A DNA stretch of 64,000 nucleotides. It comes from an uncultured Candidatus Saccharibacteria bacterium (GTDB lineage: Bacteria; Patescibacteriota; Dojkabacteria; J137). The position numbers and the translations under genes are program-made. The stretch's first letter is position 1. The number at the start of each line of letters is the position of its first letter. The DNA is taken from NCBI GenBank assembly GCA_965230975.1, contig OZ246402.1:637009-701008 (forward strand), given 5' to 3'. Positions 10,095-49,910 of the stretch are shown piece after piece. The notes below the pieces were generated by a model. The model searched no databases, was not told where the DNA came from, and saw only the letters and a program-made list of their open reading frames with translations.

Positions 10095-10192
10095 CTTTAT
10101 ATTGCATAGCTTTCTATATCAATTGCTTAGCCATTCACACAGTTTTGTAATATAATCATTTCATAATACAATCAAGCATCTATAATAGTTTA

Positions 10193-13100: not shown

Positions 13101-13396
13101 TTGTTAAAAGATTAGGAATTTTGCTTAAGGGTATGAATAATTTAACAGAAGATCAAGACGAATATTTGAACAAGGTTATGGATAAAGCCGAAGAAGGAGC
13201 ACTATCGCGTGGAGTTGCAAAAAAATTATGGGATCTAATTAACTCTAGCGATATAGGATTAGATTCACAAAAAGTGTACTTTTCGATAAAAAAGAATTTA
13301 TCAGATAACTGGCTGAAAGATACCTTCACCGAATCAAGCCATATATCGGAAGGGAAAAGAGAAGTAATATTGTCTCAAATGATATTTCCAAATTAA
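10193..13396 (+). CDS. PLD-family nuclease fused to an SNF2-family helicase
   Basis: N-terminal HKD motif LHAKVYILTF...GSSNLTAGG. SNF2 motifs: I ADVVGLGKTFIT, II VVVIDESHRFRN, III LVSATPFNN, VI VINYDIPWNPTRMIQRVGRINR. Confidence 0.8.
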   Translation: MLNQQNMNNDLTFITNEVGKSLLDRFNTLIPNYTKEFDTIVGYFFISGFHKIYRSLENVDKVRVLVGLSVDKKVADLVTSDSLQARFDLESTKQIKSDIVRKIQDEVADSEDTKEVEEGIRKFVEWLKSGKLEVKIYTKSPLHAKVYILTFQEGDRDPGMVITGSSNLTAGGLDGNLEFNVQLRDPRDYSYALEKFEQLWAESVEITDQYITTVEQKTHISDSITPYELYLKFLYEYFKNDLNYENDDEDTLPEGYLDLDYQRQAVINAKRILEEYGGVFIADVVGLGKTFITSRLVKALNQKTLVIAPPALLDENNPGSWFNVFDEFGIRHRKFESIGKLDHILAMGIHENVEVVVIDESHRFRNQSTETYNKLAEICKGKKVILVSATPFNNTPSDLLSQIKLFQNSRKSSIPNLSDLDNFFSRLNGKLKGLDRKRDYEEYMSTVKDNAKEIREKILKYLMVRRTRSEIRKYYETDLSKQKLRFPDVIEPTPVFYEFNDLEDRAFQETMDFIKVFKYSRYTPMLYYKGTITEQEKQGQRNLTTFMKMLLVKRFESSIYAFKKTLERFIHSYELMIEEYGKGNVYVSNKNANKLFELLSEQDEDGLLDLISGGKAEVYKSIDFRDEILLDMKFDLNILKQVSASWENVKRDVKLERFLNILESDKVLNRNKLLIFTESQETADYLSDKIGEKYPNSVLNYTGASSISKRFEVITNFDAKSKVQEDTYRILVTTDVLAEGVNLHRSNCVINYDIPWNPTRMIQRVGRINRVDTKFKEIYTYNFFPTSQANDELKLKESAEAKINMFIELLGNDARLLTDGEEIKSHDLFNKLLSKETLTGEDESFESELKYLQVIQSIRDTDVDLFSKIKVLPKKARTGKVSKANEIALVSYFQKGNIDKFILTAGNLTSELGFFDAVKLIESEADVKSKKISEDYYEYLSKNKNLFDELINQNIDETIIKRGGDSAQKLVKRLGILLKGMNNLTEDQDEYLNKVMDKAEEGALSRGVAKKLWDLINSSDIGLDSQKVYFSIKKNLSDNWLKDTFTESSHISEGKREVILSQMIFPN

Positions 13397-17055: not shown

Positions 17056-17069
17056 ATGTTTTCATAATT

Positions 17070-17774
17070 ATGAATTCTGCAAACCAAGGTTCATCATTTG
17101 ATTCATATAAAAGACATACAGAAAAGATCCTTAGTACTTTTGTTGGTATACAGAAAATAGCAAATCTTCCTGGAGAAACTATCAAAAAAGCTTATGCTCC
17201 AATTGAAAAGATCTTTGAACAGTTAAGGTACATGATTTATGTCGATCCAGATACTTTCAATACTCTTTCTGGTTTATATCAATCTGTTCAAATAGATAGC
17301 AGTATAAAATACCCTGATAAATATATAATCTACACCAATGCAGTAAAAACTCCTCAATATGATGGTCAGCAATTTATTGTTACCAAAGAGATTGCTTTAG
17401 TAATTGCCAAATTAGATTATCAGTATAGGCATAAGATTTATGGGAAAGTGAATAAAGTGCCTTTTAATAAACACTCTTCAGTACTAGAGATAGATGGTAC
17501 CTCTTTTCAAATCAAAAAGGATTTAGAAACTTTTAACTTATGCTTAATGTTATTTGGGTCAAAACAATATATTGAAAAGATATGGAAATGGGAAGATATA
17601 AAGACAAAAGTACTCGATCACGGAAAAGAAGTTATAGATGATGAAAATGCATTTAAACTCAAAGTATATCGTTTAAATAAGAGAATTGAGAATAAAATTG
17701 GCTTTATAGATATCATTTTGTACAAAAATAAAACTGTCCGTGTAAATCCCCAATATATCTACTTTTTCAAATAG
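17070..17774 (+). CDS. Hypothetical protein
   Basis: A 234-aa ORF immediately after the methyltransferase. No recognisable motif. Confidence 0.4.
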   Translation: MNSANQGSSFDSYKRHTEKILSTFVGIQKIANLPGETIKKAYAPIEKIFEQLRYMIYVDPDTFNTLSGLYQSVQIDSSIKYPDKYIIYTNAVKTPQYDGQQFIVTKEIALVIAKLDYQYRHKIYGKVNKVPFNKHSSVLEIDGTSFQIKKDLETFNLCLMLFGSKQYIEKIWKWEDIKTKVLDHGKEVIDDENAFKLKVYRLNKRIENKIGFIDIILYKNKTVRVNPQYIYFFK

Positions 17775-17841
17775 CAACCGAACCTTACCGAACACCACTT
17801 TCTGCAACAATACAATAAATTATTTATTATTTTATTGTTGT

Positions 17842-19167
17842 ATGGAAGAAAAACTTCAAACAGTTTATGTAAACATAAACGACCTCGTTAATGCTGATTA
17901 CAATCCTAGAAAATGGGATGAAAAGGCTCTCTCGGACTTAAAGGAAAGCATAAAGCGCTTCGGATTAGTTGATCCTGCAATCGTGAACATTGCCGAGAAC
18001 AGAAAGAATATAGTCATTGGTGGTCATATGCGTATTGAAGCAGCAAAAGCCCTGGGGGTTACTGAGATGCCAGTAATCTATCTAAATATCCCAAACGTCG
18101 AAAAAGAAAAAGAACTTAATATAAGGCTCAATAAGAATCATGGAGAATTCGATTTTGAACTTCTTGCAAATTTCGCCGAAGATTTTCTTACAGATATTGG
18201 CTTTAATTCAGAAGAACTAGATTCTATTTTCGATTGGGACGATGAAACCCCAGAAATATTTGATTTAGAGAAAGAGCTTGAAAAGTTAAATATCAAAAAC
18301 ATTGAGATTCAAAAGGGTGATGTATGGCAATTAGGTGAAAGCAGATTAATGTGTGGTGATTCTACAGTTAATGAAGATATGCATAAGCTTTTAAACAATG
18401 AGAAAGCTGACATGTGCTTTACTGATCCACCTTACATTCTTGATTATCTTCACGGTAAGAAAAAGAATGGTAAAGCAACAGAAGGATTTGGTGCTAAAAG
18501 AAATCGTAAATATCTAGAAACAGACATTCTTCCTGACAACTTCACTGAACTTTGGATGAAAAATATCTCAGAAGTTTCCAAAGATAATTTCCACATAATC
18601 GTTTATGAAAACTGGAAAAACATTAGAACAATATGGGGTGAAATGGAAAAGTATTGGAAAGTTAAAAACATGATTGTCTGGCATCTACCAAATCGTAATC
18701 AAGGCTTTGCCCCGAAATATAAATTCTTTTCGAAACATGATATTGCAATGGTCGGTTCAACCGAAGATAAAGAAGAATTGGATTTAAATCCTGAGGATGA
18801 ACTTTTGCAAAATGAGTATGAAACTGCTTTATATGCAATATCAGGTAAGCCTCAATGGGAAGGTTATGAAAAGGGAAAGACGATACAACCAACTGATTTT
18901 ATTGAATATAAAGCCTCTGATGAAAAAAGTTCGGGGCAAGGAATAATATTTGGAACGAAACCATTAGAAATCCTAATTCCCTACATCAAAGTACTTACTA
19001 AACGTGGAGATCTAATTGTTGAGCCTTTTGGAGGAAGCGGATCAACATTGATCGCTTCAACGAAAATGAAAAGAAGATGTTATCTAATGGAGAAATCTCC
19101 AGTTTATGCCGAAGTAATCAAAAATCGTTGGGAGAAATTAACTGGTGAGAAAGGAGTAAAGATATGA
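17842..19167 (+). CDS. ParB-like nuclease domain fused to an N6/N4 DNA methyltransferase (DPPY class)
   Basis: N-terminal ParB/Srx signature YNPRKW...GLVDPAIVN...GGHMRIEAAKALG. Methyltransferase motif IV MCFTDPPY. C-terminal SAM motif EPFGGSGST. Confidence 0.75.
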   Translation: MEEKLQTVYVNINDLVNADYNPRKWDEKALSDLKESIKRFGLVDPAIVNIAENRKNIVIGGHMRIEAAKALGVTEMPVIYLNIPNVEKEKELNIRLNKNHGEFDFELLANFAEDFLTDIGFNSEELDSIFDWDDETPEIFDLEKELEKLNIKNIEIQKGDVWQLGESRLMCGDSTVNEDMHKLLNNEKADMCFTDPPYILDYLHGKKKNGKATEGFGAKRNRKYLETDILPDNFTELWMKNISEVSKDNFHIIVYENWKNIRTIWGEMEKYWKVKNMIVWHLPNRNQGFAPKYKFFSKHDIAMVGSTEDKEELDLNPEDELLQNEYETALYAISGKPQWEGYEKGKTIQPTDFIEYKASDEKSSGQGIIFGTKPLEILIPYIKVLTKRGDLIVEPFGGSGSTLIASTKMKRRCYLMEKSPVYAEVIKNRWEKLTGEKGVKI

Positions 19168-19565
19168 AAAATCTAAAAAAAGAACTAATTGAACAACTAC
19201 GAAAAACTCCGATTATAGAAGTTGCTTGTAAGAAAGTTGGAATTGGTAGAGCGACCTTTTATAGATGGAAGAAAAGAGATGGCAAATTTGCTGATGAAGC
19301 AGAATCAGCAATTCTTGAAGGATCACAAGTTGTAAATGATATGGCTGAAAGTCAGTTAATTAATTCTATCAAGAACGGAAATTTAACTGGAATTATTTTT
19401 TGGCTTAAGAATCATCATAAACAATACTCACCTAAACTTGAAGTAACAACAAAAAGTGCAGATCTACCACTAACAGAAGAACAAAAGGAAGTTATTCGAA
19501 AGTCATTAAGTATGGCTTTTAATTTATCTATTAATGATACAAACGATGAACATGAAACAAATTAA
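19164..19565 (+). CDS. HTH protein, candidate terminase small subunit
   Basis: HTH KKVGIGRATFYRWKK. Its position immediately upstream of the terminase large subunit overlaps it, in the typical TerS-TerL arrangement. Confidence 0.4.
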   Translation: MKNLKKELIEQLRKTPIIEVACKKVGIGRATFYRWKKRDGKFADEAESAILEGSQVVNDMAESQLINSIKNGNLTGIIFWLKNHHKQYSPKLEVTTKSADLPLTEEQKEVIRKSLSMAFNLSINDTNDEHETN

Positions 19566-21084
19566 TAAGGATTTTGAAATACCAATGGAAATAATTGAAA
19601 AGATTTTAGTTGATAAAAGAGCGAGAAAAGAACTTACTCGAGAAAGTCATTACTGGTTCTTTCATCTTTACTTTAGTGAGTATGTTAAATATCCAACAGC
19701 AGATTTTCAAAGAGAAATGTTTAGCATCACAGAAGATGATGAAGTAAAAATGGCAGTTCTAATTGCTTTCAGAGGTTCCGCTAAGTCAACAATAATGACA
19801 ATGTCGTATCCTCTCTGGGCGATTTTAGGAAAGCAACAAAAGAAATGTGTTGTAATAATTTCTCAAACTCAACAACAAGTCAGAACTCACTTTGCAAATT
19901 TAAAAAGAGAACTAGAAAATAATGAAGTATTAAGAAACGACTTAGGTTCATTGGAGGAAGAATCTGATGAATGGGGATCGTATTCTTTAGTTCTACCTAA
20001 ATTCAATGCAAGACTTATTGCAGCATCAAGTGAACAAAGTATCAGAGGAATTAGGCATGGAGCAAATAGACCTGATTTAATTATTTGCGATGATGTTGAA
20101 GATTTAACTACTATAAAAACAAAGGAAGGCAGAGATAAAACATATTCTTGGCTATCTGGAGAAGTTATTCCGCTAGGGGATCAGAATACAAAGATAATAA
20201 TGATTGGAAATCTTCTGCACGAGGATTCTCTGTTAATGAGACTTAAAAAGAAAATCACGGAGGAAAATATGAATGCTATCTTCAGAGAATATCCTTTAGT
20301 TGATGATCAAAATAATATTCTTTGGTTAAGTAAGTTTAAAGATATAGATGCAATCAATGATTATAAAAAGATAATCGGGGATGATAAAGCTTGGCAAAGA
20401 GAATATATGCTTAAAATTATTCCAGAAGATGATCAATTAGTTTATCAAGAATGGATTCAGTATTACAATGAACTCCCAAAGAGTACTCAAGATTATAGAT
20501 ACACTATTATAGGTGTCGATTTAGCAATTTCAACAAGTGCTTCGGCTGACTATACTGCTATGGTTACAGCACATGTATTTGGAAATCTTGAAAACTTAAA
20601 AGTCTATATACTTCCTTTCCCTTTTAACAAAAGAGTTGAATTCACTACAATAACTGAAGTTATAAAACAAAAAGGAAAAGAACAACATTATGGAAGAAGA
20701 CCTGATATCTATATAGAAGAGGTGGGATTCCAAACAGCAGTAATTCATCAGTTAAAAAACCAAGGACTAAATACTAAAGGATTTAAAGTTCATGGACAAG
20801 ATAAAAGATCGAGATTAAATTCTGTAACTCCATTTATAAAGTTAGGACGAGTATTATTTCCCCAAAAAGGAGCTGAAGAACTAATTCAACAATTAGTCTA
20901 CTTCGGAGTGGAAAAGCATGATGATTTAGTGGATGCATTTTCCATGGTTCTTTTAAAAGTTGCGGAAAAGGATAGACCGGGAATTCAAGTCATAACAGGT
21001 GAAGCGGCTGCACTTTTGAGAGGTGGCGGTGGAAGCTGGTATGGCGGTGATTATTGGAGTTCAGGAAGTAGTCGATCGTTTTAA
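19534..21084 (+). CDS. Phage terminase large subunit
   Basis: Walker A-like AFRGSAKST, Walker B LIICDDVED and a C-terminal nuclease region. The tail is an unusual Gly-rich RGGGGSWYGGDYWSSGSS. Confidence 0.65.
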   Translation: MIQTMNMKQINKDFEIPMEIIEKILVDKRARKELTRESHYWFFHLYFSEYVKYPTADFQREMFSITEDDEVKMAVLIAFRGSAKSTIMTMSYPLWAILGKQQKKCVVIISQTQQQVRTHFANLKRELENNEVLRNDLGSLEEESDEWGSYSLVLPKFNARLIAASSEQSIRGIRHGANRPDLIICDDVEDLTTIKTKEGRDKTYSWLSGEVIPLGDQNTKIIMIGNLLHEDSLLMRLKKKITEENMNAIFREYPLVDDQNNILWLSKFKDIDAINDYKKIIGDDKAWQREYMLKIIPEDDQLVYQEWIQYYNELPKSTQDYRYTIIGVDLAISTSASADYTAMVTAHVFGNLENLKVYILPFPFNKRVEFTTITEVIKQKGKEQHYGRRPDIYIEEVGFQTAVIHQLKNQGLNTKGFKVHGQDKRSRLNSVTPFIKLGRVLFPQKGAEELIQQLVYFGVEKHDDLVDAFSMVLLKVAEKDRPGIQVITGEAAALLRGGGGSWYGGDYWSSGSSRSF

Positions 21085-21126
21085 AATCTCCTAGACTTAA
21101 TAAGAGAACAGCGGTACTGTCTTGGT

Positions 21127-22443
21127 GTGAAAACACTGAATCAACCAATACGGTACTGCTTATACGCTAGAAAATCATCTGAATCAGATGAGAAGCAGGC
21201 AATGAGCATAGATGGTCAACTGATGGAAATGAGAGAACTTGCAAAAAGGGAAAAGATCGAAATAATAGAAGTTATTACAGAAAGCCATTCAGCCAAAGAA
21301 ACAGGACAAAGATCTCAATTTAATTATATGGTTGAGAGCATTTCTAAAGGAAAATATAACGCAATAATTACTTGGGCTCCAGATAGAATTTCAAGAAATG
21401 CAGGCGATCTGGGACGAGTTGTTGACTTAATGGATCAAGGAAAATTACTTTTTATAAAGACTCACTCTCAGACTTTCAGTAATAACCCAAATGAAAAGTT
21501 TTTGCTTATGATTTTGTGTTCTCAAGCAAAGCTCGAAAACGATAATCGAGGTATTAATGTTAAGAGAGGCTTGAGGAATAAATGTGGTATTGGAATTCGA
21601 CCTGGAATGGCTCCAATTGGTTACTTAAATACAATGAGAGGAAATAGGATTGCTTCTGTAGACTTAGATCCTGAGCGAGCTCCTATAATTAAAGAAATGT
21701 TTTACAAGGTTGCAAACCAAGGATATTCCGGAAGGATGATTAAAAAGTGGCTTGATAAACAAAACTTTAAAACTAAGAAAGGATATTCAATAAGTCTAGG
21801 TAGAATTTATGTTGCTCTTAATAACCCATTTTATTATGGAGAATTCCGCTACGGAAAGAAATGGTATAAGGGAACTCATGAACCATTAATTACAAAGTAC
21901 ATTTTTGATAAAGCACAGATTCAATTGGAAGTAGTTCCGAAACAATGGAACAAACAAGTCTTCCCATTTAAAAAGATTTGTAAATGCGGAACTTGTGGTG
22001 GAAGTATAACTGCTGAAATTAAATATCGTAGAACGAAAGCAGGTAAGATAAACACCCACATTTATTATCACTGCAATAGAATTAGAGATTACGAATGCAA
22101 GGAGCCATATATTACAGAAGAAGAATTGATCAAACAATTAATAATTTTGCTACCCAATCTTAAATTGAATACTAAATATTTATGGATGGAATTTGATGAG
22201 GAGATTAAAAGACTAAATCATTTAAAAGGTATTATTTATAATCAACAAGAAGCAAGCATACAACTTACACCACATAATCTTAATAAGTTGAAATCAGAAG
22301 ATTTAAGTCCCGAAGAATATCTAATGCTACAAAGTTATTTACTGCACATTCTTCAATTTGGAACTCCTGAAGAGAGACTAAGGATTCTGACTGGAATTCA
22401 ATCTAAATTTGAATTAACTCAAAGAGTGTTGGTAGCAAAGTAA
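21127..22443 (+). CDS. Large serine recombinase (integrase)
   Basis: N-terminal resolvase domain YARKSS...DRISR with the catalytic Ser in RKSS. C-terminal zinc ribbon CKCGTCGG...YYHCNRIRDYEC. Length is 438 aa. Confidence 0.8.
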   Translation: MKTLNQPIRYCLYARKSSESDEKQAMSIDGQLMEMRELAKREKIEIIEVITESHSAKETGQRSQFNYMVESISKGKYNAIITWAPDRISRNAGDLGRVVDLMDQGKLLFIKTHSQTFSNNPNEKFLLMILCSQAKLENDNRGINVKRGLRNKCGIGIRPGMAPIGYLNTMRGNRIASVDLDPERAPIIKEMFYKVANQGYSGRMIKKWLDKQNFKTKKGYSISLGRIYVALNNPFYYGEFRYGKKWYKGTHEPLITKYIFDKAQIQLEVVPKQWNKQVFPFKKICKCGTCGGSITAEIKYRRTKAGKINTHIYYHCNRIRDYECKEPYITEEELIKQLIILLPNLKLNTKYLWMEFDEEIKRLNHLKGIIYNQQEASIQLTPHNLNKLKSEDLSPEEYLMLQSYLLHILQFGTPEERLRILTGIQSKFELTQRVLVAK

Positions 22444-22469
22444 ATTAATTCCCTTTAATTATAATTCTA

Positions 22470-23216
22470 TTGTATCAATTGGTTAGATACTGCTATTCTC
22501 TGACTATGAAATATATAGTTGTATCAATGACATCCACAAGACCAGACAAATATGGGACTGCTTTTTCGAAAGAAGCACTTTTTGATGGAGCTAAACAAAT
22601 AAATATAAAATACCTACCGGTAAATATAGAGCATGATCGTTCCAATGTTATAGGTGTGGTTTTATATGCAGAGGTCCATGAATTACTAGATGGCGAATGG
22701 TTTCTAATGAATGTTTCTGGACTATTTGAGGAAAACGATGATAAAGAATTATTTAAGGCTGGATTGTCAAATATCGAGAGCTCAAATCCAAAATACCCTA
22801 AGCTAATTGCAGATGAGCTAGAGAACTTTAGGTTACATTTAAAAACCGTGCCTATAACTAAATACAAAATACCTAATACTCTTGAAGGTCAAATTGAACA
22901 GTATCTAGACAGGACAAAAGTCGATGAAAACGGGAATGTCTATGAAATCCGTGCATTTATTGATTCGGTAGGCGATCTAAAAATAGAGATCTATCCTAAT
23001 GATCACAACCCACCACATTTTCATATCACATCAAGGCAAAGAGGCATTAATGCAAGGTTTAATTTAACTACACTTAAATTTATTGACAATAAGAAAGGAA
23101 GTCGCGGTAGATTAACTTCCAACGATATTAAAAAGTTGGAAAGTTTTTTTGAGATGCATCCTCAAGCCCAAGAAGAACTTAGGAAAAGGTATGAAGATTT
23201 TAATCAAAACAACTGA
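22470..23216 (+). CDS. DUF4160-containing protein
   Basis: C-terminal IYPNDHNPPHFHI is the DUF4160 signature. The N-terminal half is unassigned. The true start is possibly at 22506. Confidence 0.45.
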   Translation: MYQLVRYCYSLTMKYIVVSMTSTRPDKYGTAFSKEALFDGAKQINIKYLPVNIEHDRSNVIGVVLYAEVHELLDGEWFLMNVSGLFEENDDKELFKAGLSNIESSNPKYPKLIADELENFRLHLKTVPITKYKIPNTLEGQIEQYLDRTKVDENGNVYEIRAFIDSVGDLKIEIYPNDHNPPHFHITSRQRGINARFNLTTLKFIDNKKGSRGRLTSNDIKKLESFFEMHPQAQEELRKRYEDFNQNN

Positions 23217-23524
23217 ATAGAGAACAACATTCGGACCTAAAGTATCATTCCTGAATAATCAATACTCACAACAAAAAAGCTTAGAACCAGAGAGGTATGT
23301 TTAAAAGCCTAATATGGCTATTTTCAGGCTAAAACAACGATTTTGAGACATTTACGAATTATTGGAAGCCAATGTACAACACCATTCAACGCTACCAAGG
23401 TAGGTAGACGGGTCTTGCGAAACCATTTTAAAATGGCGGGGGCGACGATATTCTCACTAAAGTTTTTAAGTCTATATAAATGCCAATGGGTAAATAATTC
23501 CATTGGCATTTAAGATTAAGTTTA

Positions 23525-23776
23525 TCAGGAATTTCTTCTAGTTCTTTCAACTTTTCCTAAAATCAATTTCATCATATCTTCTCTGTCAGCTGCTAAAGAA
23601 TCGTCACTCATTTGTTCCTCAGTATAGATTCTTTCAAGGACTTTTGAAGCAACAGCCTCATTACTTAAAGTTGGCTCTTCTTGAAGAACATTCTTAATTT
23701 CAGTTCTTATTGACTCATTTATTGTTGCACCAATACTTCTTAGTCCATGTTCAATCACATTATCTAGACCATCCAT
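23525..23776 (-). CDS. Hypothetical small protein
   Basis: An 83-aa ORF between the island cargo and tRNA-Ser. No motif. Confidence 0.25.
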   Translation of the reverse strand: MDGLDNVIEHGLRSIGATINESIRTEIKNVLQEEPTLSNEAVASKVLERIYTEEQMSDDSLAADREDMMKLILGKVERTRRNS

Positions 23777-24066
23777 AAATATTATACTAATAAATAATAC
23801 TTAGATTAAACATTAAATCTTGAGCTTTTGCAACTCAATCATTTTATATTGGTTAAAATTTACAAAGTTTAAAAATAATTAGTTTTAATCGTGAACACCC
23901 ACAATAAAAAATATTAGAACCAAAAGATATTAAACTTAAGCCAAAATCAGAGGTATTCAGTAAAAAAGTAGGTATTTTAAGAAAATGAAATTCTTGGACA
24001 AAATTCGACAAGACTGTTAATGCTTTGACACCATAGTACCCAGGTCTTGTAGGATACTATAGGATA

Positions 24067-24157
24067 TGGCGGAGGAGACAGGATTCGAACCTGCGTCCCA
24101 GTTGCCCGGGAACAGTCTTTCCAGGACTGCGCACTAGACCAACTATGCGACTCCTCC
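24067..24157 (-). tRNA. tRNA-Ser (anticodon GGA), with a long variable arm and CCA encoded
   Basis: The minus strand reads GGAGGAGUCGCAUAGUUGGUCUAGUGCGCAGUCCUGGAAAGACUG...GGUUCGAAUCCUGUCUCCUCCGCCA. The anticodon loop is CUGGAAA, the T-loop is GGUUCGAAUCC, and the acceptor stem is 7 bp. Confidence 0.85.
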
Positions 24158-30005: not shown

Positions 30006-32486
30006 ATGTCTAAGCCAAAGTTAATCAAAACATTGCCTCATTTACACCCTCTTTTTTTCAATAAAGAGGCGTTAACTATATCTAGCGAATACTATTCGTT
30101 TACAGCCCGAGATTTTTTGGCTAACATGCAGGTTTTAAGCTTAAAGGAGATTAGGTTTAAGGAAGTTTTAAGATACCTTGAAGCGAACGATTTTGAACGA
30201 GTACCAAAAAATCTCGAGATAAAACAATATTCCTTACGAGGAGATGTAATAACCGCTTGGTTTGTGGGGTATGAATCACCAATAAGAATGGAATTCTTTG
30301 GAGAGGATTTAGAAAAGATGTATTTGGTAGATGAGATATATTCTAAAAAACTTAAAGATATTAAATACTTGGTTATTGGCGGAATAAATGGAAAAGATGA
30401 TTTAAATTCTATAAAAATATCTTTGCCAGAAATAACAAACGAACATTTTGACACAAAATATTTAGAGGTAGAAAAACTAATATTCACAAATTCAATACAA
30501 AATGTAGAGGGTAATGGCTACCAAATAATTAAAACTGATTATCAATTTCCACAACTATTTTATTCAAGGTTAGACCTTTTTGAAAAAGAAGTTGAAAGAT
30601 TAGAAAATCAAGGGTATCACATATATATAAAGACAGAAAACGAAGACTCTTTAGGTTATGAGTTACAAAAATACTTAGATTTACCAAAAGAAAATTCACT
30701 TTTACAAAATATTAAAAATATTGAGTTACTAGCAGGTTTTATTTCAGAGCAGGAAAAGTTGGCAGTATTTACAGATAGAGAACTATTTGGAACTATCTTC
30801 TTAACAAGACCCGAAAGACTTAAAAAATCCACATCTAATATTCAAAGACTTTTGCAACAATTTGAAGGCAATATTGAAATGGGAGATTACGTTGTTCACG
30901 AAGATTACGGAATTGGTATTTATTCTGGTTTAACCCAAGAGATGATAGATGATCAAATGTACGAATATCTATTACTAAAATACGATAAAGAAGATGAATT
31001 GTACGTGCCTATTAATCAAATAGAAAAGATAACCAAATATATTGGTAATGAAGGTGTAGACCCAAAAGTCACAAGGTTAGGTGGTGTAAGTTGGGAGAAT
31101 GTTAAAAGAAAAATTAAAGCCTCTACAAGATTATTGGCAAAAGAACTTATAGAACACTTTGCAAAAAGAGAGGTTTCTAAAGCAAAAGCGATTCCTAATA
31201 AAGATTCTAAAGATTTTAATAAGTTTGTTGAGGAGTTTAAACATGTAGAAACAGATGATCAAATTAGAGCTGTAAACGAGATTGTTGCAGACATGGAAAA
31301 GCCAGTACCAATGGATAGGCTTTTGGTTGGTGACGTTGGTTTTGGTAAAACAGAGGTGTTTATGAGGGCTGCTTTTAAAGCTGTAGAAGATGGTGGGCAA
31401 GTTGCAGTTTTGTCCCCAACAACTGTTTTAACATCTCAACACGATGAGGTCTTTAAAGAGCGTTTTAAAAACTTTCCAATAAGAATAGAGTCAATTTCCC
31501 GATTTAACACCCCACTAGAAAATAAAAAGATTATTGAGGCAGCAAATGATGGGAAAGTAGATATTTTGATTGGAACACACAGACTTTTAAGTAGTGATGT
31601 TAAATTTAAGAACTTGCAATTGGTTATTGTAGATGAAGAGCAGAGATTTGGTGTTAAACAAAAAGAGAAGATTAAACAATTAAATTACGAAGCTCATGTT
31701 TTAGCTGTAAGTGCAACCCCAATACCAAGAACTTTAAGTATGGCGTTATCAACCATTCAAGAGATTTCAATAATCACAACTCCGCCAAAGGGTCGAAAAT
31801 CTATACATACAGAAATTGTTAAAGATGATTGGAACCACATTGCCAAGGCAATTCAATTTGAAATAAATCGTGGTGGCCAAGTTTTCTTTTTACACAACAA
31901 GATTCAAAACATGGGTTTTATAGAAGAAAAACTTGGCCAGCTTGTTCCTGGTTTACGTATAGTTTCTGCACATGGTCAAATGAACTCAGATAAGCTAGAT
32001 GGCATTATGGATGACTTTTACCACAAGAAATATGATTTATTAATTTCTACCACAATAATTGAAAATGGGCTCGACCTGCCAAATGTTAATACAATTATAG
32101 TTAATAACGCACATAGATTTGGTTTATCCCAACTTTACCAGTTAAGAGGCCGGGTTGGCAGGTCCGACAGGCAATCATTTTGCTATCTTTTATATCAAGG
32201 TCAAGATTTGAAAGCTTTAGAGCAAGAGGATGAAAAGTCTAATAAAAGAAAAAGAAACAAAAAGTATTTAGAAAGATTAAACTCTTTAGTTGAAAATCAA
32301 GATTTGGGCGCAGGTTTTAGAATCGCAAGTAAAGATTTAGAGATTCGAGGCGCAGGTAATTTATTGGGCGAGCAACAGAGTGGCCATATTGCTGCAATTG
32401 GTTATGCACTTTATGTAGAATTACTAGCTCAAGAGGTAGAAAAGATTAGAGAGGTTATGAACCCTTCATACAAACCTTTGATTTAA
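30006..32486 (+). CDS. mfd: Transcription-repair coupling factor, short form (826 aa)
   Basis: RNAP-interacting motif GDYVVHEDYGIGIY. Helicase motif I GDVGFGKTEV and motif II LVIVDEEQRFGV. A C-terminal TRCF-like region is present. The N-terminus is about 200-300 aa shorter than E. coli Mfd. Confidence 0.85.
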   Translation: MSKPKLIKTLPHLHPLFFNKEALTISSEYYSFTARDFLANMQVLSLKEIRFKEVLRYLEANDFERVPKNLEIKQYSLRGDVITAWFVGYESPIRMEFFGEDLEKMYLVDEIYSKKLKDIKYLVIGGINGKDDLNSIKISLPEITNEHFDTKYLEVEKLIFTNSIQNVEGNGYQIIKTDYQFPQLFYSRLDLFEKEVERLENQGYHIYIKTENEDSLGYELQKYLDLPKENSLLQNIKNIELLAGFISEQEKLAVFTDRELFGTIFLTRPERLKKSTSNIQRLLQQFEGNIEMGDYVVHEDYGIGIYSGLTQEMIDDQMYEYLLLKYDKEDELYVPINQIEKITKYIGNEGVDPKVTRLGGVSWENVKRKIKASTRLLAKELIEHFAKREVSKAKAIPNKDSKDFNKFVEEFKHVETDDQIRAVNEIVADMEKPVPMDRLLVGDVGFGKTEVFMRAAFKAVEDGGQVAVLSPTTVLTSQHDEVFKERFKNFPIRIESISRFNTPLENKKIIEAANDGKVDILIGTHRLLSSDVKFKNLQLVIVDEEQRFGVKQKEKIKQLNYEAHVLAVSATPIPRTLSMALSTIQEISIITTPPKGRKSIHTEIVKDDWNHIAKAIQFEINRGGQVFFLHNKIQNMGFIEEKLGQLVPGLRIVSAHGQMNSDKLDGIMDDFYHKKYDLLISTTIIENGLDLPNVNTIIVNNAHRFGLSQLYQLRGRVGRSDRQSFCYLLYQGQDLKALEQEDEKSNKRKRNKKYLERLNSLVENQDLGAGFRIASKDLEIRGAGNLLGEQQSGHIAAIGYALYVELLAQEVEKIREVMNPSYKPLI

Positions 32487-32504
32487 GGTTATCTTTGACT
32501 GTAT

Positions 32505-33350
32505 TTAACCTTCTTTTGGCTCACTAACATCAAAGTGATTTGTCCAACCGAGTCCGTTTTCTCTTAATACAGCTGTTATTAGGGCAATTAAAGTCCGTGA
32601 ATATTGCGGTCCAAGTGGTAAAAATGGGTCAAATCTGTATTCCCTATATTTACTTTCTTCTAAATCTTTATTTTCAGCTCTAAGTTGTAGGCTTAACTTG
32701 CACAATGCAAGGTAAATAATAAAATCAATAAGACCAGTTACAATTAAATAAATTTGTGGGTTTTTAATATCTAAATTTAAAACCAATGCTATTGCAAAAA
32801 AAGAAAGTACCCATATTTGACTTGCCTCTAAAACCCTATCTGTTATAGTTTTATCATTAAATTTAGCTAGAATAATATCCCGTAATGACTTATCTGTGTA
32901 TTGGTTTAAATAAGTAACCCATTCGTCAATGTTATTAATATCTTTCTCGGAATTTTGGATTTTTTGAATAATAAGCTGTCTATTAAGATGCATTTCTACC
33001 GGTATTTTTCGAATAGTGTTATTAATTAAATGTAAATGTAAATCTTGTACATCTGATTTTAGTATTCTAAATTTTTTTGCCCGTTTTACTTTACCTTTAG
33101 ATCTATCCATAACCATTGTGTCACCAATACTACCTCCAAAAGAGACCACTACTTCATCTTGTCCAAGATTTTCAAAAATAATATCTATATCCGATAAACC
33201 AATAAATTTAGCAAGCCGCTCCAAGTTTTTGGGGTTGAAAACAAGTTTGGAAGCATCTGTTCCATCTGGGAACTGAAGTTTTACATAAACCGCAGATTCT
33301 GGGTTTTTATATTCAAAAACATTTTTTGGTTTATTTTCAAGATTATCCAC
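32505..33350 (-). CDS. Hypothetical membrane protein
   Basis: 281 aa with C-terminal hydrophobic segments (VLSFFAIALVLNL, IYLIVTGLIDFIIYLAL). Confidence 0.4.
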   Translation of the reverse strand: MDNLENKPKNVFEYKNPESAVYVKLQFPDGTDASKLVFNPKNLERLAKFIGLSDIDIIFENLGQDEVVVSFGGSIGDTMVMDRSKGKVKRAKKFRILKSDVQDLHLHLINNTIRKIPVEMHLNRQLIIQKIQNSEKDINNIDEWVTYLNQYTDKSLRDIILAKFNDKTITDRVLEASQIWVLSFFAIALVLNLDIKNPQIYLIVTGLIDFIIYLALCKLSLQLRAENKDLEESKYREYRFDPFLPLGPQYSRTLIALITAVLRENGLGWTNHFDVSEPKEG

Positions 33351-33543
33351 ATTAGTAATTTTGCAGGATTATAGCAGGTAGTATTTAAATTAGTAAATTT
33401 GCTATCAAAATCCTGAGCAAAGGAATAAAATATAAAAATTATCTAAAATTTATCAGTTCTTAGGCTAAATCAGACATAAAAAGAATAATTGTAAGGTTAC
33501 AGCCCTCTTTACTAGATAATTCAAACAATTAATTTATTATCAC

Positions 33544-36465
33544 TTGTTTATGACAGATGCAGTAAGAACATTGCAATCTAGCGATTTAGCAGATAATTTA
33601 TCAAATAATACTACTTATGATCTTTTGATATCAGATTTATTAAAAAAATATGAATCTAGTGGAGTAGCGTTTGCCCCTAACGATGTTAAGTATCTTTTAC
33701 TCTTTGCAAAAGAGATGCACGAAAGATGGAAAGATGGGTTAAATGGCGCAACAGCAGTAAGATCAACAACTGATATTAATTGGTTAAAAAACCATGAATC
33801 ACCAACAGAAGATGACCGAGTGTTGGTTGGCAAGTTAGCCGATGGTACTCAAGGTGCTATTATCTCTAACTGTACTTTTGATGAATTGCCACTTGATTGG
33901 AAACTTGAAAACATACAAGATTTATTAGAGGCATTCAAAATTGTTCAAGAATTTTATAAATCGGGTAGAAATATTAATAGTAAAAATATTCAAGAAGTTT
34001 CAAAGTTACTGCACACAGCATGGGTAGAAAGAACAATTGCAAGAACACCCGAAAGAGAATCTCAAATAGAAAAAGATTACGATAAGTTAAGTGCACTTTA
34101 TTTGCACCGAAATAATGCATATAGATTAGAAATGGCGAGAGATATGCTATTAAGGTTAAGGTTCTTAAATGGTGGCATTACAGAAATTAAAGACAGGAAT
34201 AGCTTAAGGCAATCTATGCAACTTGAAGTTGCAAGCAGAAAAAGATTACCAGTCCCGGTTGGATACCCAGAAGAATGGGGAAATCCGAATTTGTCTAAAA
34301 TGACTTTTACCGATCAAGAGATTTCAACTTGGGTTGAATCTGATATGCGTGGTGAAGTTTTAATACAAATGATATTGCAAAAAAGTGGAAAAACTCTATC
34401 TGAAGTAGCAAATTTAAATAACGATACGGGTCTAGGATTTTCAATTTATCCAATTCATGACAATTTGATTAAGAAACAAGGTAAATTATTAACACAAGAT
34501 AAATGGAAAATCAGAAGTGCAAATGAATATATCAGAGGAATTTACCCAGAAGATATAATCGAACGTTTGAAATCAGGAGTCAATATCCCACTATCAATTG
34601 ACCCAAGATCAGGAGAATTAACATTCTATCAGGGTTTTTACTGGGACCCAGGCTTGAATTTTGCCGGAGATGCAGTTTTAGCTGGTGCAACTATAGTGGA
34701 TGGCAGGTTAGCATTTTCTGTACTTACAATTGACCCAGCAGTGTTCCCAGGTTATAAGGCAATTCCGGGTGGAATGGTTGAGTCTGGAGATATTCAAATC
34801 AAAGGGGCAATTGCAAATAGCACTCAATTACGAGAGCTATACGAAGAAACTCATGTTCAAATTAGCCCAGAATGCAGAGTTCCAGGTACCGAACTTCAAA
34901 GAAAGGTTGTAGAAGGTAGAGGTACTTTAACAAATGTGGCATTTAGCGAAGCATTTGTTTACTTAATTCCAATTGATAGTCCTTTCGAAATTAATGCTAC
35001 ACCTGGCGATGATGCACTAGGTGCTCGAATGCAAGTTGCTAATTCAGATTTATTTAAGCAGTTTCACTCACCAACACATGTTGAATTTGTACAAGAAGCA
35101 ATTAAGATTTTTGAACAACAAAACCCGGGTCTTGTTGTTGGTGAAGATGGATACATCTATTTGACTGAAGGCGTTGAGATAAACAAGGTAGATGGTGAGC
35201 TAATGTTAAAGACGGGTTATAGATTTGATAGTGTTAACGGTAAAGTTGTATCTATTGAATCTGAAGAATTCACTAAGAACTTAAAGGTTGTAGAAGATGA
35301 AGCTGAGGCTTATGCATCCTTTAGAAACATTATTGGTGAAAATAGTAAATTTAATAAGAATATTTTTGAATTATTCAATTCAGAATATACCTCTAATCTT
35401 AAAGTATGGGGTCAAACTACAATTACTAACCTTACTGATGCTCAATTAACTCAAATAAAACAATGGGCAGAATCTGGATTTGGTAAAGGTAAGTTCTTTG
35501 TAAAAGTTTTAGGTAAAGACGTGATTATAGAAAGAGCATTCTACAAATCCGCCCCTAAAAAGATGGTAAGGCTTTATGTACCAGAAAAATTAGAAGATAG
35601 AAGGGCTTTAATTAGAGCTGAACTCTCAAATCTTTTAGAATCAGAAGAAAACAAGTTCTTGTTTGAAGATTTAAGAGGTGTAGTATCCTTAATTGGAGGT
35701 GCATCTTTAATATCTGCCGAAAAAGCTGGGTCTATAGATCGCAGGCTTCAAGATATTCTTGTAATTGTGCAACAAAAGCTTAATGGTAAATTTGCTGTTG
35801 TAGATGGTGGTACAGATACTGGCGTTATGAAATCTGTAGGTAATGCAGAAAGAAGGCTAAATGGAATGTTAACAAGCATAGGTGTTTCTCCATTGGGCGG
35901 AATGACAAACTGGTTTGCACCCTTAAATACTCAACACGATTTATCTTTAGTTTTAAATAATTGTAATGACTTTGGTGAAGAAACTGAATTCATGATGATT
36001 TTAATTTCAGAATTAATTAACTTAATGAATAGAGGCAGTGCATTCACAATCTTAGCAAATGGAGGAAAAATTACGGTTGTAGAAGCATTTAGTAATGTAA
36101 GAGAGGGTAGAAAGGTCTTAGTTTTGAGTGATTCTGGTAGAACTTGTGACTTACTTGAAACAATGTTAGCCGGGAATTCAGTAAAGATTGGCGCTACTGG
36201 TAGAGAAACTTTAGCCGGAGACGATACTAAGAACTTGAACGAAATTGTGAATCAGCTACTAAAAACTTACAACGAGCAAGGCTTTGCCGATGAAATTACT
36301 AAGTGTATTGTATCAAATGAAGGTAAGAAGATTATGGAATTCGATATTTCAAGAAGTCCTGTCATTTTAGAAAGATTAAGACAAGACTTTATTGTTGCTA
36401 AGGGGTCTACAATGTCCGAACTTGAGGCAGATGTAAATGCAATTCTGTCTTTAGCGCAAGTATAA
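33544..36465 (+). CDS. Large multidomain protein (973 aa) with a Nudix-like motif and a C-terminal SLOG/LOG/DprA-like Rossmann segment
   Basis: PGGMVESGDIQIKGAIANSTQLRELYEETHV resembles the Nudix box REUxEExGU, with divergent spacing. AVVDGGTDTGVMKSVGNAERRLNG resembles the LOG/DprA glycine-rich nucleotide-binding motif. Confidence 0.45.
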   Translation: MFMTDAVRTLQSSDLADNLSNNTTYDLLISDLLKKYESSGVAFAPNDVKYLLLFAKEMHERWKDGLNGATAVRSTTDINWLKNHESPTEDDRVLVGKLADGTQGAIISNCTFDELPLDWKLENIQDLLEAFKIVQEFYKSGRNINSKNIQEVSKLLHTAWVERTIARTPERESQIEKDYDKLSALYLHRNNAYRLEMARDMLLRLRFLNGGITEIKDRNSLRQSMQLEVASRKRLPVPVGYPEEWGNPNLSKMTFTDQEISTWVESDMRGEVLIQMILQKSGKTLSEVANLNNDTGLGFSIYPIHDNLIKKQGKLLTQDKWKIRSANEYIRGIYPEDIIERLKSGVNIPLSIDPRSGELTFYQGFYWDPGLNFAGDAVLAGATIVDGRLAFSVLTIDPAVFPGYKAIPGGMVESGDIQIKGAIANSTQLRELYEETHVQISPECRVPGTELQRKVVEGRGTLTNVAFSEAFVYLIPIDSPFEINATPGDDALGARMQVANSDLFKQFHSPTHVEFVQEAIKIFEQQNPGLVVGEDGYIYLTEGVEINKVDGELMLKTGYRFDSVNGKVVSIESEEFTKNLKVVEDEAEAYASFRNIIGENSKFNKNIFELFNSEYTSNLKVWGQTTITNLTDAQLTQIKQWAESGFGKGKFFVKVLGKDVIIERAFYKSAPKKMVRLYVPEKLEDRRALIRAELSNLLESEENKFLFEDLRGVVSLIGGASLISAEKAGSIDRRLQDILVIVQQKLNGKFAVVDGGTDTGVMKSVGNAERRLNGMLTSIGVSPLGGMTNWFAPLNTQHDLSLVLNNCNDFGEETEFMMILISELINLMNRGSAFTILANGGKITVVEAFSNVREGRKVLVLSDSGRTCDLLETMLAGNSVKIGATGRETLAGDDTKNLNEIVNQLLKTYNEQGFADEITKCIVSNEGKKIMEFDISRSPVILERLRQDFIVAKGSTMSELEADVNAILSLAQV

Positions 36466-36492: not shown

Positions 36493-36522
36493 GGGCCTCA
36501 GTTTCACTGAGGCCCTTTATTT
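36493..36522. terminator. Rho-independent terminator. It is probably bidirectional, sitting between convergent genes
   Basis: GGGCCTCAG-tttca-CTGAGGCCC is a 9-bp GC-rich perfect stem followed by TTTATTT. Confidence 0.7.
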
Positions 36523-36572
36523 AGAGCTTTTTAAATCAAAGTTTTATTGACAAAGATAAAGACTATTTGTGA

Positions 36573-48065: not shown

Positions 48066-49910
48066 ATGAAATTACCAATAATAGGAGATTTATTACCTAC
48101 AAAACAAACAAAAGATGCCGTAAGCAAAAAAGAGGAGCAGGCTTTAAATGCAGAAGCGCAGGTCGTGCAAAATTTTACAAAAGGATTAGTCAGTGTAAAA
48201 GATGTTATTGCCCCATCTGCAATTGAGGTTAATTTTAATAACTTAGCGATAGGTAGTAAATTTTTTAGATCTTACTTTGCAGTAGGCTTTCCAAGTGTTG
48301 TTACCCCAAATTGGTTAGAACCTTTAATAAATTTTGAATATCCAATAGACATAAGCACATTTTACTACCCATTTGATACAGGAGAAATTTTAAAAATGCT
48401 TAAAAGAAAAATTGCAGAAATGCAAGCTACTATGAGCATTCAAATGGAATCTGGAAGGCCTGCAGACCCTGTTTTAAAACAGCAATTGCAAGACGCCTTA
48501 ACCTTGCAGGAGCAATTGGCTGCAGGTAACGAAAAATTCTTTCAATATGCACTTTATTTGACAATTCATGCAGATAGTATTGAAGATCTAGATAAAGTTG
48601 GTAAAAACCTAGAGGCAACCATGGCCACATTAGGGGTAATAATTAAAGTTGCCACTCTACAGCAAGAAGAGGCGTTTCAAACAACTATACCTTATGGTGT
48701 AGATAAAATTAATATGTTTAGAAACTTAGATACAACTGCTATTGCCACAACATTTCCTTTTGTAAGTTCTGAACTTACAATGGAGAAAGGCGTTTTATAC
48801 GGAATCAATTTGCATAATAGCTCTTTAGTTATTTTTGACAGATTTTCTTTACCAAATGCAAATTCTGTTGTTTTAGCAACTTCTGGAGCGGGTAAATCTT
48901 ACGCTGTTAAGTTAGAAGCTGTTAGATCTTTAATGCTTGGTATTGATGTAACAATTATTGACCCTGAAAAAGAATTTGATAGGCTTTGTGATGCTGTAGG
49001 AGGAGAATATGTTTCTTTCTCTCAAGATGGTGCCCAAAAATTGAATCCATTTGAACTATCTGGTATTTACCAAAAAGATGAAGACGAGCTTAGATTTAAA
49101 ATCCTTACTCTATCGGGTTTAATTAGAATTTTGCTTGGGGGAAACTTAAGTGCAGAAGAAGCAGCAATTTTAGATAGAGCCATAATCTTAACTTATAAAG
49201 AAAAAGGTATTACTCCAGATCCATCTACTCATGCTAACGAAGCTCCTTTAATGGAAGATCTGTACAAGATTTTAAATGCAATGGCAGAAGAAGAGGCTCA
49301 TTCAATGGCTCGAAGACTAGAAAAGTATTTAAGAGGTTCTGCAGCAGGGGTTTTTGATCAAAGATCAACAGTGGACATTAAAAACAGATTTACAGTGTTT
49401 AGCATTAGAGATTTGGCAGATGATTTAAGACCAGCTGCCATGTATGTTATGTTAGATTATATATGGACTAAAATTAAAAGAGATAAAAGAAAGAGGTTGT
49501 TAATAATAGATGAGGCTTGGATAATGATGCAGTATGAAGATGCCGCTAGATTTGTATATTCTATTGCAAAAAGAGCAAGAAAATATGGTTTAGGTTTAAC
49601 AACAATTACACAAGATGTAGATGATTTTTTAGATTCTGTTTATGGTAAGGCTATTGTAAATAACTCTGCAATGCAAATTTTGTTAAAACAATCCCCGGCT
49701 GCTATTGATAAATTGCAAAAGGTCTTTTACCTAACTGATGGAGAAAAGAACTTTTTACTTTCTGCAGGAATAGGGCAGGGCATATTTTTTGCAGGAGCAA
49801 ACCATGTAGCTATTCAAACTATTGCTAGTGATAGTGAACATGGTTTAATTACTACAAATCCTAATGAGCTTTTACCTAAACCTGGAGCTACTCCAGAAGA
49901 ACAGGTATAA
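48066..49910 (+). CDS. VirB4/TrbE/CagE-family type IV secretion ATPase
   Basis: Walker A VLATSGAGKSYAVK and Walker B LLIIDEAWIMM, with the C-terminal motifs of VirB4-like ATPases. Length is 614 aa. Confidence 0.8.
   Translation: MKLPIIGDLLPTKQTKDAVSKKEEQALNAEAQVVQNFTKGLVSVKDVIAPSAIEVNFNNLAIGSKFFRSYFAVGFPSVVTPNWLEPLINFEYPIDISTFYYPFDTGEILKMLKRKIAEMQATMSIQMESGRPADPVLKQQLQDALTLQEQLAAGNEKFFQYALYLTIHADSIEDLDKVGKNLEATMATLGVIIKVATLQQEEAFQTTIPYGVDKINMFRNLDTTAIATTFPFVSSELTMEKGVLYGINLHNSSLVIFDRFSLPNANSVVLATSGAGKSYAVKLEAVRSLMLGIDVTIIDPEKEFDRLCDAVGGEYVSFSQDGAQKLNPFELSGIYQKDEDELRFKILTLSGLIRILLGGNLSAEEAAILDRAIILTYKEKGITPDPSTHANEAPLMEDLYKILNAMAEEEAHSMARRLEKYLRGSAAGVFDQRSTVDIKNRFTVFSIRDLADDLRPAAMYVMLDYIWTKIKRDKRKRLLIIDEAWIMMQYEDAARFVYSIAKRARKYGLGLTTITQDVDDFLDSVYGKAIVNNSAMQILLKQSPAAIDKLQKVFYLTDGEKNFLLSAGIGQGIFFAGANHVAIQTIASDSEHGLITTNPNELLPKPGATPEEQV

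Follow-up and report, generated by a model that had tools for sequence, protein, structure and literature searches.

A predicted bacterial fusion of RyR-like, NUDT9-type Nudix and TRPM2-like SLOG domains as a candidate handler of ADP-ribose-derived signals

The channel TRPM2 and its choanoflagellate counterpart, the TRPM2 'chanzyme', combine in one polypeptide a SLOG domain of the LSDAT type (MHR1/2) and a Nudix domain of the NUDT9 type, which are the two ADP-ribose (ADPR) sites of TRPM2. NUDT9 splits ADPR into adenosine monophosphate (AMP) and ribose-5-phosphate, and the Nudix domain of human TRPM2 is inactive, its metal-binding RE-xx-EE motif having been lost. In bacteria, LSDAT-SLATT pairs are two-gene systems, according to the account of Burroughs et al. 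(2015) cited in PMC13143021. Phage proteins with a ryanodine receptor (RyR) domain, the RyDEPs, bind the cyclic ADPR (cADPR) isomers 2'cADPR and 3'cADPR, in one case with hydrolysis to linear ADPR (PMC13232231, a preprint of May 2026), and viral SLOG proteins belong mainly to the YpsA-like clade and are fused to Macro or NADAR domains, viral Nudix proteins being typically stand-alone (PMC9503650). Here we describe a gene whose predicted product appears to join relatives of the RyR, Nudix and SLOG domains in a single chain, located in a 64,000-nucleotide stretch of DNA (hereafter the window; positions 637,009 to 701,008 of contig OZ246402.1, assembly GCA_965230975.1) from an uncultured Candidatus Saccharibacteria bacterium placed by GTDB in the Dojkabacteria. 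The gene and its three modules are as follows, by window position and by residue (aa).

33550-36465, plus strand: gene for the 971-aa protein, ATG at 33550 and stop codon at 36463-36465
33682-34164, plus strand: aa 45-205, predicted divergent RyR/Repeat12 (PF02026-like) tandem repeat, from sequence search, family profile and AlphaFold2/Foldseek
34252-34629, plus strand: aa 235-360, putative N-terminal 'cap' region of the NUDT9-like module, from VGYPEEWGNP through HDN to GFYWDPG
34630-35157, plus strand: aa 361-536, Nudix core of NUDT9 type, from profile comparison via stand-alone relatives
35650-36294, plus strand: aa 701-915, LSDAT-type SLOG domain, from Pfam LSDAT_prok and a family alignment

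We propose, tentatively and at slightly less than even confidence, that the protein is a soluble enzyme or sensor that captures and degrades ADPR-derived signalling nucleotides, namely ADPR and/or cADPR isomers. The catalytic core of the protein would be the Nudix module, with the RyR and SLOG domains acting as high-affinity capture or allosteric sites or possibly carrying out extra glycosidase steps, and the protein would end or blunt TIR/Thoeris-type signalling in biological conflict. We infer the ligands, the catalysis, the order of the steps and the biological role. Capture followed by degradation is favoured because linear ADPR, the product of RyDEP, is the substrate of NUDT9, and because a TRPM2-type SLOG domain accepts bent ADPR as well as a cyclic analogue. 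The proposal draws on the domain homologies, the retention of key ligand-contact motifs, purifying selection, the rarity of the protein and the replacement of its allele between strains. The first-pass annotation of this DNA had spoken of a possible nucleotide-processing or sensor protein; that idea holds, and the RyR/Repeat12 domain of about 160 residues sharpens the predicted ligand to ADP-ribose derivatives.

The C-terminal SLOG segment of the first-pass annotation was borne out by Pfam LSDAT_prok (PF18171), which matched aa 712-882 with 90.6 bits against a cutoff of 25.4 (E = 1.1e-25); LSDAT_euk matched much more weakly (1.4e-3 vs 1e-25). The segment had been likened to LOG and DprA, and it does belong to the SLOG superfamily, albeit to the TRPM-type LSDAT clade instead of LOG or DprA. 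Its motifs are IGGAS (715-719), DGGTDTGVM (752-760, within which GGTDTGVM occupies aa 753-760, nucleotides 35806-35829), H796, F808-G-E-E811, NGGKITVVE (837-845) and SGR864, and all 18 invariant columns of a 28-sequence family alignment are kept, including G716, G717, A718, D752, G753, G754, T755, G758, M760, N837, G838, G839, G863 and R864. The nearest relatives are stand-alone LSDAT proteins of about 245 residues, mostly cyanobacterial, with 29-38% identity. When the family profile was compared with the PDB, TRPM2 ranked first (choanoflagellate chanzyme, 2.7e-22; human, 2e-18), followed by TRPM8, 3, 7, 1, 4 and 5, with matches in these structures confined to MHR1/2, and homology to the MHR1/2 structures suggests a Rossmann-like three-layer fold.

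In human TRPM2, Y295 and the beta5-alpha3 loop of MHR1/2 clamp ADPR, R358 holds the phosphates, R302 contacts the adenosine ribose, and the same site takes the cyclic analogue 8-Br-cADPR (PMC6759353). According to the alignment, three of these four ADPR determinants are kept in the window protein: F808 (W in the cyanobacterial proteins) stands at the position of Y295, G753-GTDTGVM760 at that of G208-GSHTGVM215, and the invariant R864 at that of R358, and R302 maps to a TRPM2-specific insertion. In LOG enzymes the catalytic motif is PGGxGTxxE, the last Glu being catalytic (PMC4979012). N837-GG-KIT-VV-E845 (aa 837-845, nucleotides 36058-36084) is spaced like this motif and puts E845 at the position of the catalytic Glu, which is Asp in bacterial LSDATs and Thr in TRPM2. 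Since no counterpart of the LOG catalytic Arg was evident in the window SLOG domain, this domain may only bind its ligand or may also cleave it. Across bacterial LSDATs, the acidic residue at the LOG catalytic position hints that these proteins may be enzymes rather than pure sensors.

The nearest SLOG relatives belong to the LSDAT-SLATT systems, with which the window domain has all invariant motifs in common. The arrangement differs, for there a stand-alone SLOG gene is followed by a SLATT_1/DUF4231 membrane gene, whereas here the SLOG domain is the C-terminal part of a 971-aa fusion, and no SLATT partner was matched among the neighbours in the window even at E<=10. Stand-alone LSDAT genes lie directly 5' of SLATT_1/DUF4231 membrane genes in L084 (6001-7942) and L086 (6001-7274); in L086 the LSDAT stop and the next start share one base, and in L084 a YjeF_N/carbohydrate-kinase gene of the NAD(P)HX repair type lies just upstream of the LSDAT gene.

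The relatives in LSDAT-SLATT systems bring in an alternative that we consider possible but doubtful, namely a sensor with a built-in timer. In such a protein the SLOG and/or RyR domain would sense an ADPR-type signal, the Nudix domain would hydrolyse the ligand and so end the response, and the output would come from the segment aa 537-700 or from a partner in trans, for example a membrane protein. It is favoured by the stand-alone LSDAT relatives, which are the sensor halves of those two-gene systems, and by the SLOG and NUDT9 pairing that gates TRPM2, but neither a SLATT protein nor any other recognisable effector is present in cis.

The Nudix domain suspected in the first-pass annotation was confirmed through intermediates, the direct Pfam match being sub-threshold. 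A phmmer search with aa 1-700 against 1.84 billion representative proteins found the stand-alone proteins P0004 (E = 2.4e-8), P0006 and P0008, which align to aa 317-536 and all score above the Pfam NUDIX threshold. By hhalign, an alignment of the three orthologous sequences (the window protein and two relatives) matched one made solely of the stand-alone proteins at a probability of 99.5% (E = 2.3e-22), the 235 aligned columns taking in both the pre-Nudix region and the Nudix core. The stand-alone family in turn matched human NUDT9 (1q33) in the PDB at 1.5e-16 and then the TRPM2 NUDT9-H domains of Nematostella and the choanoflagellate at 2.7e-10 and 8.7e-10, the next Nudix protein following at 1e-6. 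A mixed profile gave 5.5e-15. By this transitive link the window Nudix module appears to belong with NUDT9. The region aa 235-360 aligns with the N-terminal halves of P0004, P0006 and P0008, and its position suggests homology to the NUDT9 cap; we use 'cap' as a putative label since the PDB alignments to NUDT9 cover only the core, starting at about aa 360.

With NUDT9 and the three stand-alone proteins, the window protein shares about 235 homologous columns that include the pre-Nudix region, PGG, RE-xx-EE, an R-T-L-N block, GDDA and P-x-H, and it differs from them by a 6-residue insertion in the Nudix box, D414 in place of the first Glu, a roughly 45-residue insertion in the cap region and its multidomain setting. 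The Nudix box spans aa 406-436 (nucleotides 34765-34857). RELYEETH, which the first-pass annotation had singled out for its non-canonical spacing, lies within it (aa 428-435, nucleotides 34831-34854). We estimated that REx2EE would occur by chance in a protein this long with a probability of roughly 2%, so the motif needed profile support, which was obtained. Compared with the canonical G-x5-E-x7-R-E-U-x-E-E-x-G-U, the window box reads G408-x5-D414-x13-R428-E-L-Y-E-E-T-H-V and departs from the consensus in spacing (+6), in the first E (D414) and in the final G (H), with R-E-U-x-E-E intact; the insertion is common to all three orthologous sequences. Also kept in the core are RE-xx-EE (428-433), the motif that human TRPM2 has lost, GDDA (486-489) and SPTH (507-510). 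The insertion and the Asp in place of the first Glu leave Nudix activity uncertain, and catalysis is plausible but not assured. In L095 (7968-9566), a stand-alone NUDT9-like gene is convergent to a NAPRTase-family gene of NAD salvage, with MazF-like toxin and RadC genes nearby. The neighbours of stand-alone NUDT9-like genes were considered as a clue to the present gene and set aside, being unrelated to any part of it.

The first-pass annotation had missed a third, N-terminal domain, for which the evidence is modest but consistent. In the same phmmer search, P0005 (1.4e-5), P0007 and P0009 aligned to aa 96-200, with E-values ranging from 1e-5 to 4e-4. All three are members of a family (P0005-P0054) that comprises at least 45 small stand-alone proteins of about 135-190 residues, several from Patescibacteria and Peribacteria, and that the precomputed Pfam annotation missed almost wholly (2 of 47 labelled). 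When 42 of these RyR-like sequences were aligned, 23 matched Pfam RyR at E<0.1 (best 1.2e-6), and the ten best PDB matches of the family profile were all RyR repeats (7.3e-5 to 0.097), including Bacteroides 'putative ryanodine receptor' domains. An AlphaFold2 model of aa 41-224 had a mean predicted local distance difference test (pLDDT) value of 84 and a predicted template-modelling (TM) score of 0.75. Its best Foldseek match was 6uhi, a Bt/human RyR R12 chimera (probability 0.97, TM-score 0.48 over the whole domain); human RyR3 R12 with AMP-PCP also reached 0.48, and nearly all other listed matches were below 0.25. The usable structure model covers the RyR domain only; full-length AlphaFold2 on a three-sequence alignment gave a pLDDT of 36.

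In RyDEP, H75 and D117 form the catalytic dyad, W78 stacks on the adenine and H100 on the phosphates (PMC13232231), and the H-xx-W ... H-P ... D spacing of the DyoEdafos protein gp78 is that of a canonical RyR repeat. The window domain shares with RyDEP and RyR Repeat12 (PF02026), the R12 domains of which bind adenine nucleotides, the predicted helical RyR-repeat fold and the H-xx-W ligand motif, which is kept in both repeats (H57/W60 and H155/W158). It differs in carrying both repeats on a single polypeptide, RyDEP being a homodimer of one-repeat chains, in being very divergent, and in being fused and cellular instead of phage-borne. The catalytic Asp is replaced, the corresponding residues being E120-N121 in repeat 1 and HRNN (186-189) in repeat 2, and the His-Pro with the phosphate-binding His was not evident in the window domain, which therefore does not show the RyDEP catalytic set. 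With the H-xx-W pairs kept and the Asp lost, binding by this domain is likelier than RyDEP-type cleavage. Direct comparison of the RyR-like family with RyDEP alone by hhalign was weak (probability 1.3%). A MAFFT alignment had paired EIKDR (aa 212-216) with the EKEKDR motif of the family, and this pairing was rejected; D215 is G or S in the orthologues.

The same residues bear on the notion of a non-catalytic sponge, which we regard as improbable, in which all three modules would lack catalysis and sequester ADPR-type signals at three sites. The disrupted spacing of the Nudix box, the missing RyDEP acid residue, the sponge behaviour of six of eight phage RyDEP homologues and the TRPM2 SLOG domain, a pure binder, all agree with it. 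However, RE-xx-EE is fully kept under purifying selection, E845 stands at the LOG catalytic position, and a stoichiometric sponge of 971 residues would be costly for a 1.2-Mb genome.

By analogy with RyDEP, the stand-alone RyR-like proteins may bind or hydrolyse cADPR isomers in cells. The larger members were checked as possible Nudix or SLOG fusions and are neither. In L090 (5570-6414), a 144-aa NUDIX gene overlaps by 4 nucleotides the start of a stand-alone RyR-like gene (P0011), and the RyDEP gene is flanked by NAD-salvage genes; together with the NUDT9-like gene of L095, these linkages lend weak support to the capture-and-degrade reading. A second NUDIX gene lies 0.4 kb upstream of the pair in L090.

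Taken as a whole, the protein resembles TRPM2 in combining an LSDAT SLOG domain with a NUDT9-type Nudix module, in that TRPM2 is the best PDB match for the SLOG profile and second only to NUDT9 for the Nudix-family profile, and in three conserved elements of the MHR1/2 site (aromatic clamp, GGxxTGVM loop and phosphate Arg). It is unlike TRPM2 in having no TRP six-helix pore, MHR3/4 or transmembrane segment, in the reversed order of the two domains (Nudix before SLOG), in its extra RyR domain and orphan segment, and in a SLOG domain that is of the prokaryotic clade and has an acidic residue, rather than the Thr of TRPM2, at the catalytic position of LOG. The viral SLOG, Macro, NADAR and Nudix proteins (PMC9503650) are similar in coupling several domains that process or sense ADPR derivatives against NAD-derived signals; no phage homologue of the window protein was found in IMG/VR, phage records or PHROGs. 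Judged from its sequence, the protein is not a TRPM2, an LSDAT-SLATT system or a RyDEP, though the kinds of domain are all known; the triple fusion alone appears undescribed, as far as checked in a literature that excluded Burroughs et al. (2015).

The protein had been called an orphan, which is nearly right: of some 15 billion proteins, no more than three full-length, non-identical sequences are of this kind, the other two being 77% and 69% identical to the window protein. No family member was found in 185,579 GTDB species-representative genomes, nor in JGI metagenome contigs, IMG/VR or phage records, and plasmid records gave matches to the SLOG domain only and no full-length relative. No second protein of this architecture was found when aa 1-700 were searched against the 1.84 billion representatives and the families of the relatives were checked. 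The two orthologues lie on related contigs, L002 and L003, and comparison of the window with L002 revealed the following two features.

32490-36291, no strand: segment replaced between near-clonal strains, from nucleotide comparison with L002
32505-33350, minus strand: strain-specific 281-aa open reading frame (ORF) with two predicted transmembrane helices (aa ~173-220) and no family match

Nucleotide identity to L002 was 97.1% over 8.4 kb upstream (tRNA, UvrA, Mfd) and 97-100% from 36292 on, and fell to 60-82% within 32490-36291; the two target proteins are 77% identical. The synonymous substitution rate (dS) was about 1.3 inside the segment and 0 in the last 56 codons of the gene, and the breakpoints fall where mfd and the SLOG domain (codon ~915) end. 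A diverged segment between near-identical flanks, with this contrast in dS, indicates that a diverged allele was swapped by recombination into a near-clonal background. The replaced segment takes in the target gene and its promoter region, and both alleles are under purifying selection. L003 represents a more distant genome throughout (Mfd 85%, target 69%). The window has about 0.8 kb extra relative to L002, including the 281-aa ORF, which lies in the replaced segment, is transcribed divergently from the target and has no counterpart in either L002 or L003. This ORF may encode an accessory partner or be cargo without any relation to the target. That this two-helix ORF shares the replaced segment in the window strain would suit a sensor acting through a membrane partner, but the ORF is missing from two of the three relatives.

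Although only two strains are compared, the pattern is more suggestive of a conflict locus that varies between strains than of an ordinary housekeeping gene. A housekeeping role in sanitation, in which an ADPR pyrophosphatase would clear free ADPR from NAD turnover and the extra nucleotide-binding domains would be regulatory, seems unlikely to us. The gene sits among core genes (UvrA, a short Mfd-like helicase, YchF and a DHH/DHHA2 phosphoesterase), and the order UvrA-Mfd-target-126-aa ORF-YchF is common to the window, L002 and L003. Its base composition is native, with a G+C content of 34.9% vs 33.9% for UvrA (31.5% for the window) and third-position G+C also like that of core genes. Selection is strongly purifying: the ratio of nonsynonymous to synonymous substitution (dN/dS) against the orthologues is 0.13-0.17 for the whole gene and 0.07-0.2 in all segments. 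These points, and a stand-alone NUDT9-like relative beside a NAPRTase-family gene, would fit sanitation. Against it stand the existence of three sequences only, with none in the species-representative genomes, the alleles at 77% with recombination breakpoints in near-clonal strains, and two extra ligand-binding domains that exceed the needs of a sanitation enzyme.

The rest of the protein, put at about 650 unassigned residues by the first-pass annotation, is now down to about 290 (aa 1-44, 206-234, 537-700 and 916-971), among which three segments were delimited.

33550-33681, plus strand: aa 1-44, variable helical N-terminal segment with no family matches
35158-35649, plus strand: aa 537-700, conserved orphan alpha/beta segment
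36295-36462, plus strand: aa 916-971, lineage-specific C-terminal extension, outside the diverged segment and about 100% identical in nucleotides to L002

Identity among the orthologues is 45-48% in aa 1-44 and 70-83% elsewhere. The segment aa 537-700 had no match in Pfam, the PDB or the 1.84 billion representative proteins, and purifying selection on it (dN/dS 0.07-0.08) is stronger than on any other segment. Such constraint would suit the output part of a timed sensor, but the segment has no detectable homologues or motifs.

Several observations weigh against the capture-and-degrade reading. For the Nudix module, beside the insertion and the Asp in its box, the Pfam NUDIX match (PF00293, aa 399-462) is sub-threshold at 15.2 vs 21.1 bits (E = 0.021), and no Nudix structure in the PDB was matched by a profile built from the three orthologous sequences. 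For the RyR domain, beside the replaced catalytic Asp, Pfam RyR gave no match on the window domain itself, the structural match to RyR R12 is modest (TM-score 0.48, E = 0.12), six of eight tested RyDEP homologues bind the signal without cleaving it (PMC13232231), and a Nudix gene adjoined a RyR-like gene in only one of five sampled contexts. The 164 conserved residues of aa 537-700 are without an assigned role, the conserved synteny is with housekeeping neighbours (UvrA, Mfd, YchF), and no TIR/Thoeris gene was seen among the window ORFs scanned, which were part of the total. The main limit is the tiny, uncultured family, whose three sequences preclude covariation analysis and wider neighbourhood statistics.

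A broader form of the capture-and-degrade proposal, which we consider rather doubtful, would treat the protein as a 'Rosetta stone', with RyR Repeat12, the TRPM2 SLOG domain and NUDT9 all deriving from one prokaryotic ADPR/cADPR toolkit, an ADPR derivative as the ligand of LSDAT-SLATT systems, and disassembly in three steps. A cADPR isomer would be opened to ADPR by the RyR domain, ADPR would be split into AMP and ribose-5-phosphate by the Nudix module, and AMP or ADPR might be cut to release adenine by the SLOG domain through E845. A bacterium of the candidate phyla radiation would in this way silence immune signalling derived from NAD, whether its own or that of its host, and the modules would correspond to the nucleotide sensors of the two Ca2+-channel families of eukaryotes that are tied to ADPR/cADPR. 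Horizontal transfer from eukaryotes was considered and rejected: the SLOG domain is of the prokaryotic clade, the nearest relatives of the domains come from prokaryote-type assemblies, and the G+C content is like that of core genes.

If the ligand prediction is true, it would provide a testable ADPR/cADPR-isomer hypothesis for the bacterial LSDAT SLOG family and independent cellular (non-phage) support for RyR-repeat domains as ADPR-signal modules. It would also mean that the SLOG and NUDT9 pairing that defines TRPM2 arose in bacteria as well, without a channel, which bears on the evolution of the dual ADPR sensing of TRPM2. The allele replacement suggests a conflict role in bacteria of the candidate phyla radiation, a group in which little is known of defence and counter-defence.

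The 973-aa ORF of the first-pass annotation is real in that the plus-strand frame 33544-36465 is uninterrupted, with 973 codons counted from a TTG at 33544 and many stop codons on the opposite strand, but its start should be moved 6 nucleotides downstream. Because the identical database copy (P0001, NCBI/Logan), which lies on a 1.19-Mb contig, has 971 residues and all three orthologous sequences open with MTDAVR, the true start is almost certainly the ATG at 33550. The gene stands alone, as had been stated, being monocistronic with a divergent 5' neighbour (the 281-aa ORF) and a convergent 3' neighbour (a 126-aa ORF). No transmembrane segment was predicted (maximum 19-residue Kyte-Doolittle mean, 1.59); the product is probably a soluble, three-module protein of 971 residues, and it had no match in NCBIfam, PADLOC or PHROGs. 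Its source is probably a bacterium of the candidate phyla radiation with a small, AT-rich genome; among 185,579 species representatives, UvrA of the window was matched best, at 61%, by a Candidatus Saccharibacteria metagenome-assembled genome. Two signals flank the gene.

33513-33540, plus strand: weak sigma-70-like promoter match TAGATA-16-TATTAT, by consensus only, in the 193-nucleotide upstream intergenic region
36493-36525, plus strand: intrinsic terminator, GGGCCUCAGU-UUC-ACUGAGGCCC followed by UUUAUUU

Promoter-like matches in the upstream intergenic region were no more numerous than in shuffled sequence. The terminator hairpin (36493-36515) has a 10-bp stem with 7 G-C pairs, a folding energy of about -20 kcal/mol and a z-score of -3.2. 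It had been described as strong and bidirectional; the hairpin is real, but a U-tract follows it on the plus strand only, the minus strand reading GGGGGAGUUACA, so bidirectional action is unsupported by the canonical criterion.

Among the other genes of the window, the short Mfd-like transcription-repair coupling factor upstream of the target (30006-32486, plus strand, 826 aa) has UvrB-interaction, CarD/TRCF-RID and helicase domains and no match for the C-terminal TRCF domain. An island of defence and mobile-element genes occupies 7780-24157, with a tRNA (24070-24157) marking its boundary. Within it, a SMODS-domain protein (8312-9400) precedes a SEC-C-motif protein (9366-10094); also present are a PLD-SNF2 helicase (10193-13396), an Eco57I-type N6 methylase (13396-17055), a ParB-methylase (17842-19167), a terminase-like gene (19534-21084) and a serine recombinase (21127-22443), and just upstream of the island lies a gene for an S24 LexA-like peptidase (6705-7331, minus strand). 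Further downstream in the window, a gene at 48066-49910 on the plus strand encodes a TraG/VirD4-like P-loop ATPase (PF19044, E = 5e-28), suggesting a component of type IV secretion or conjugation.

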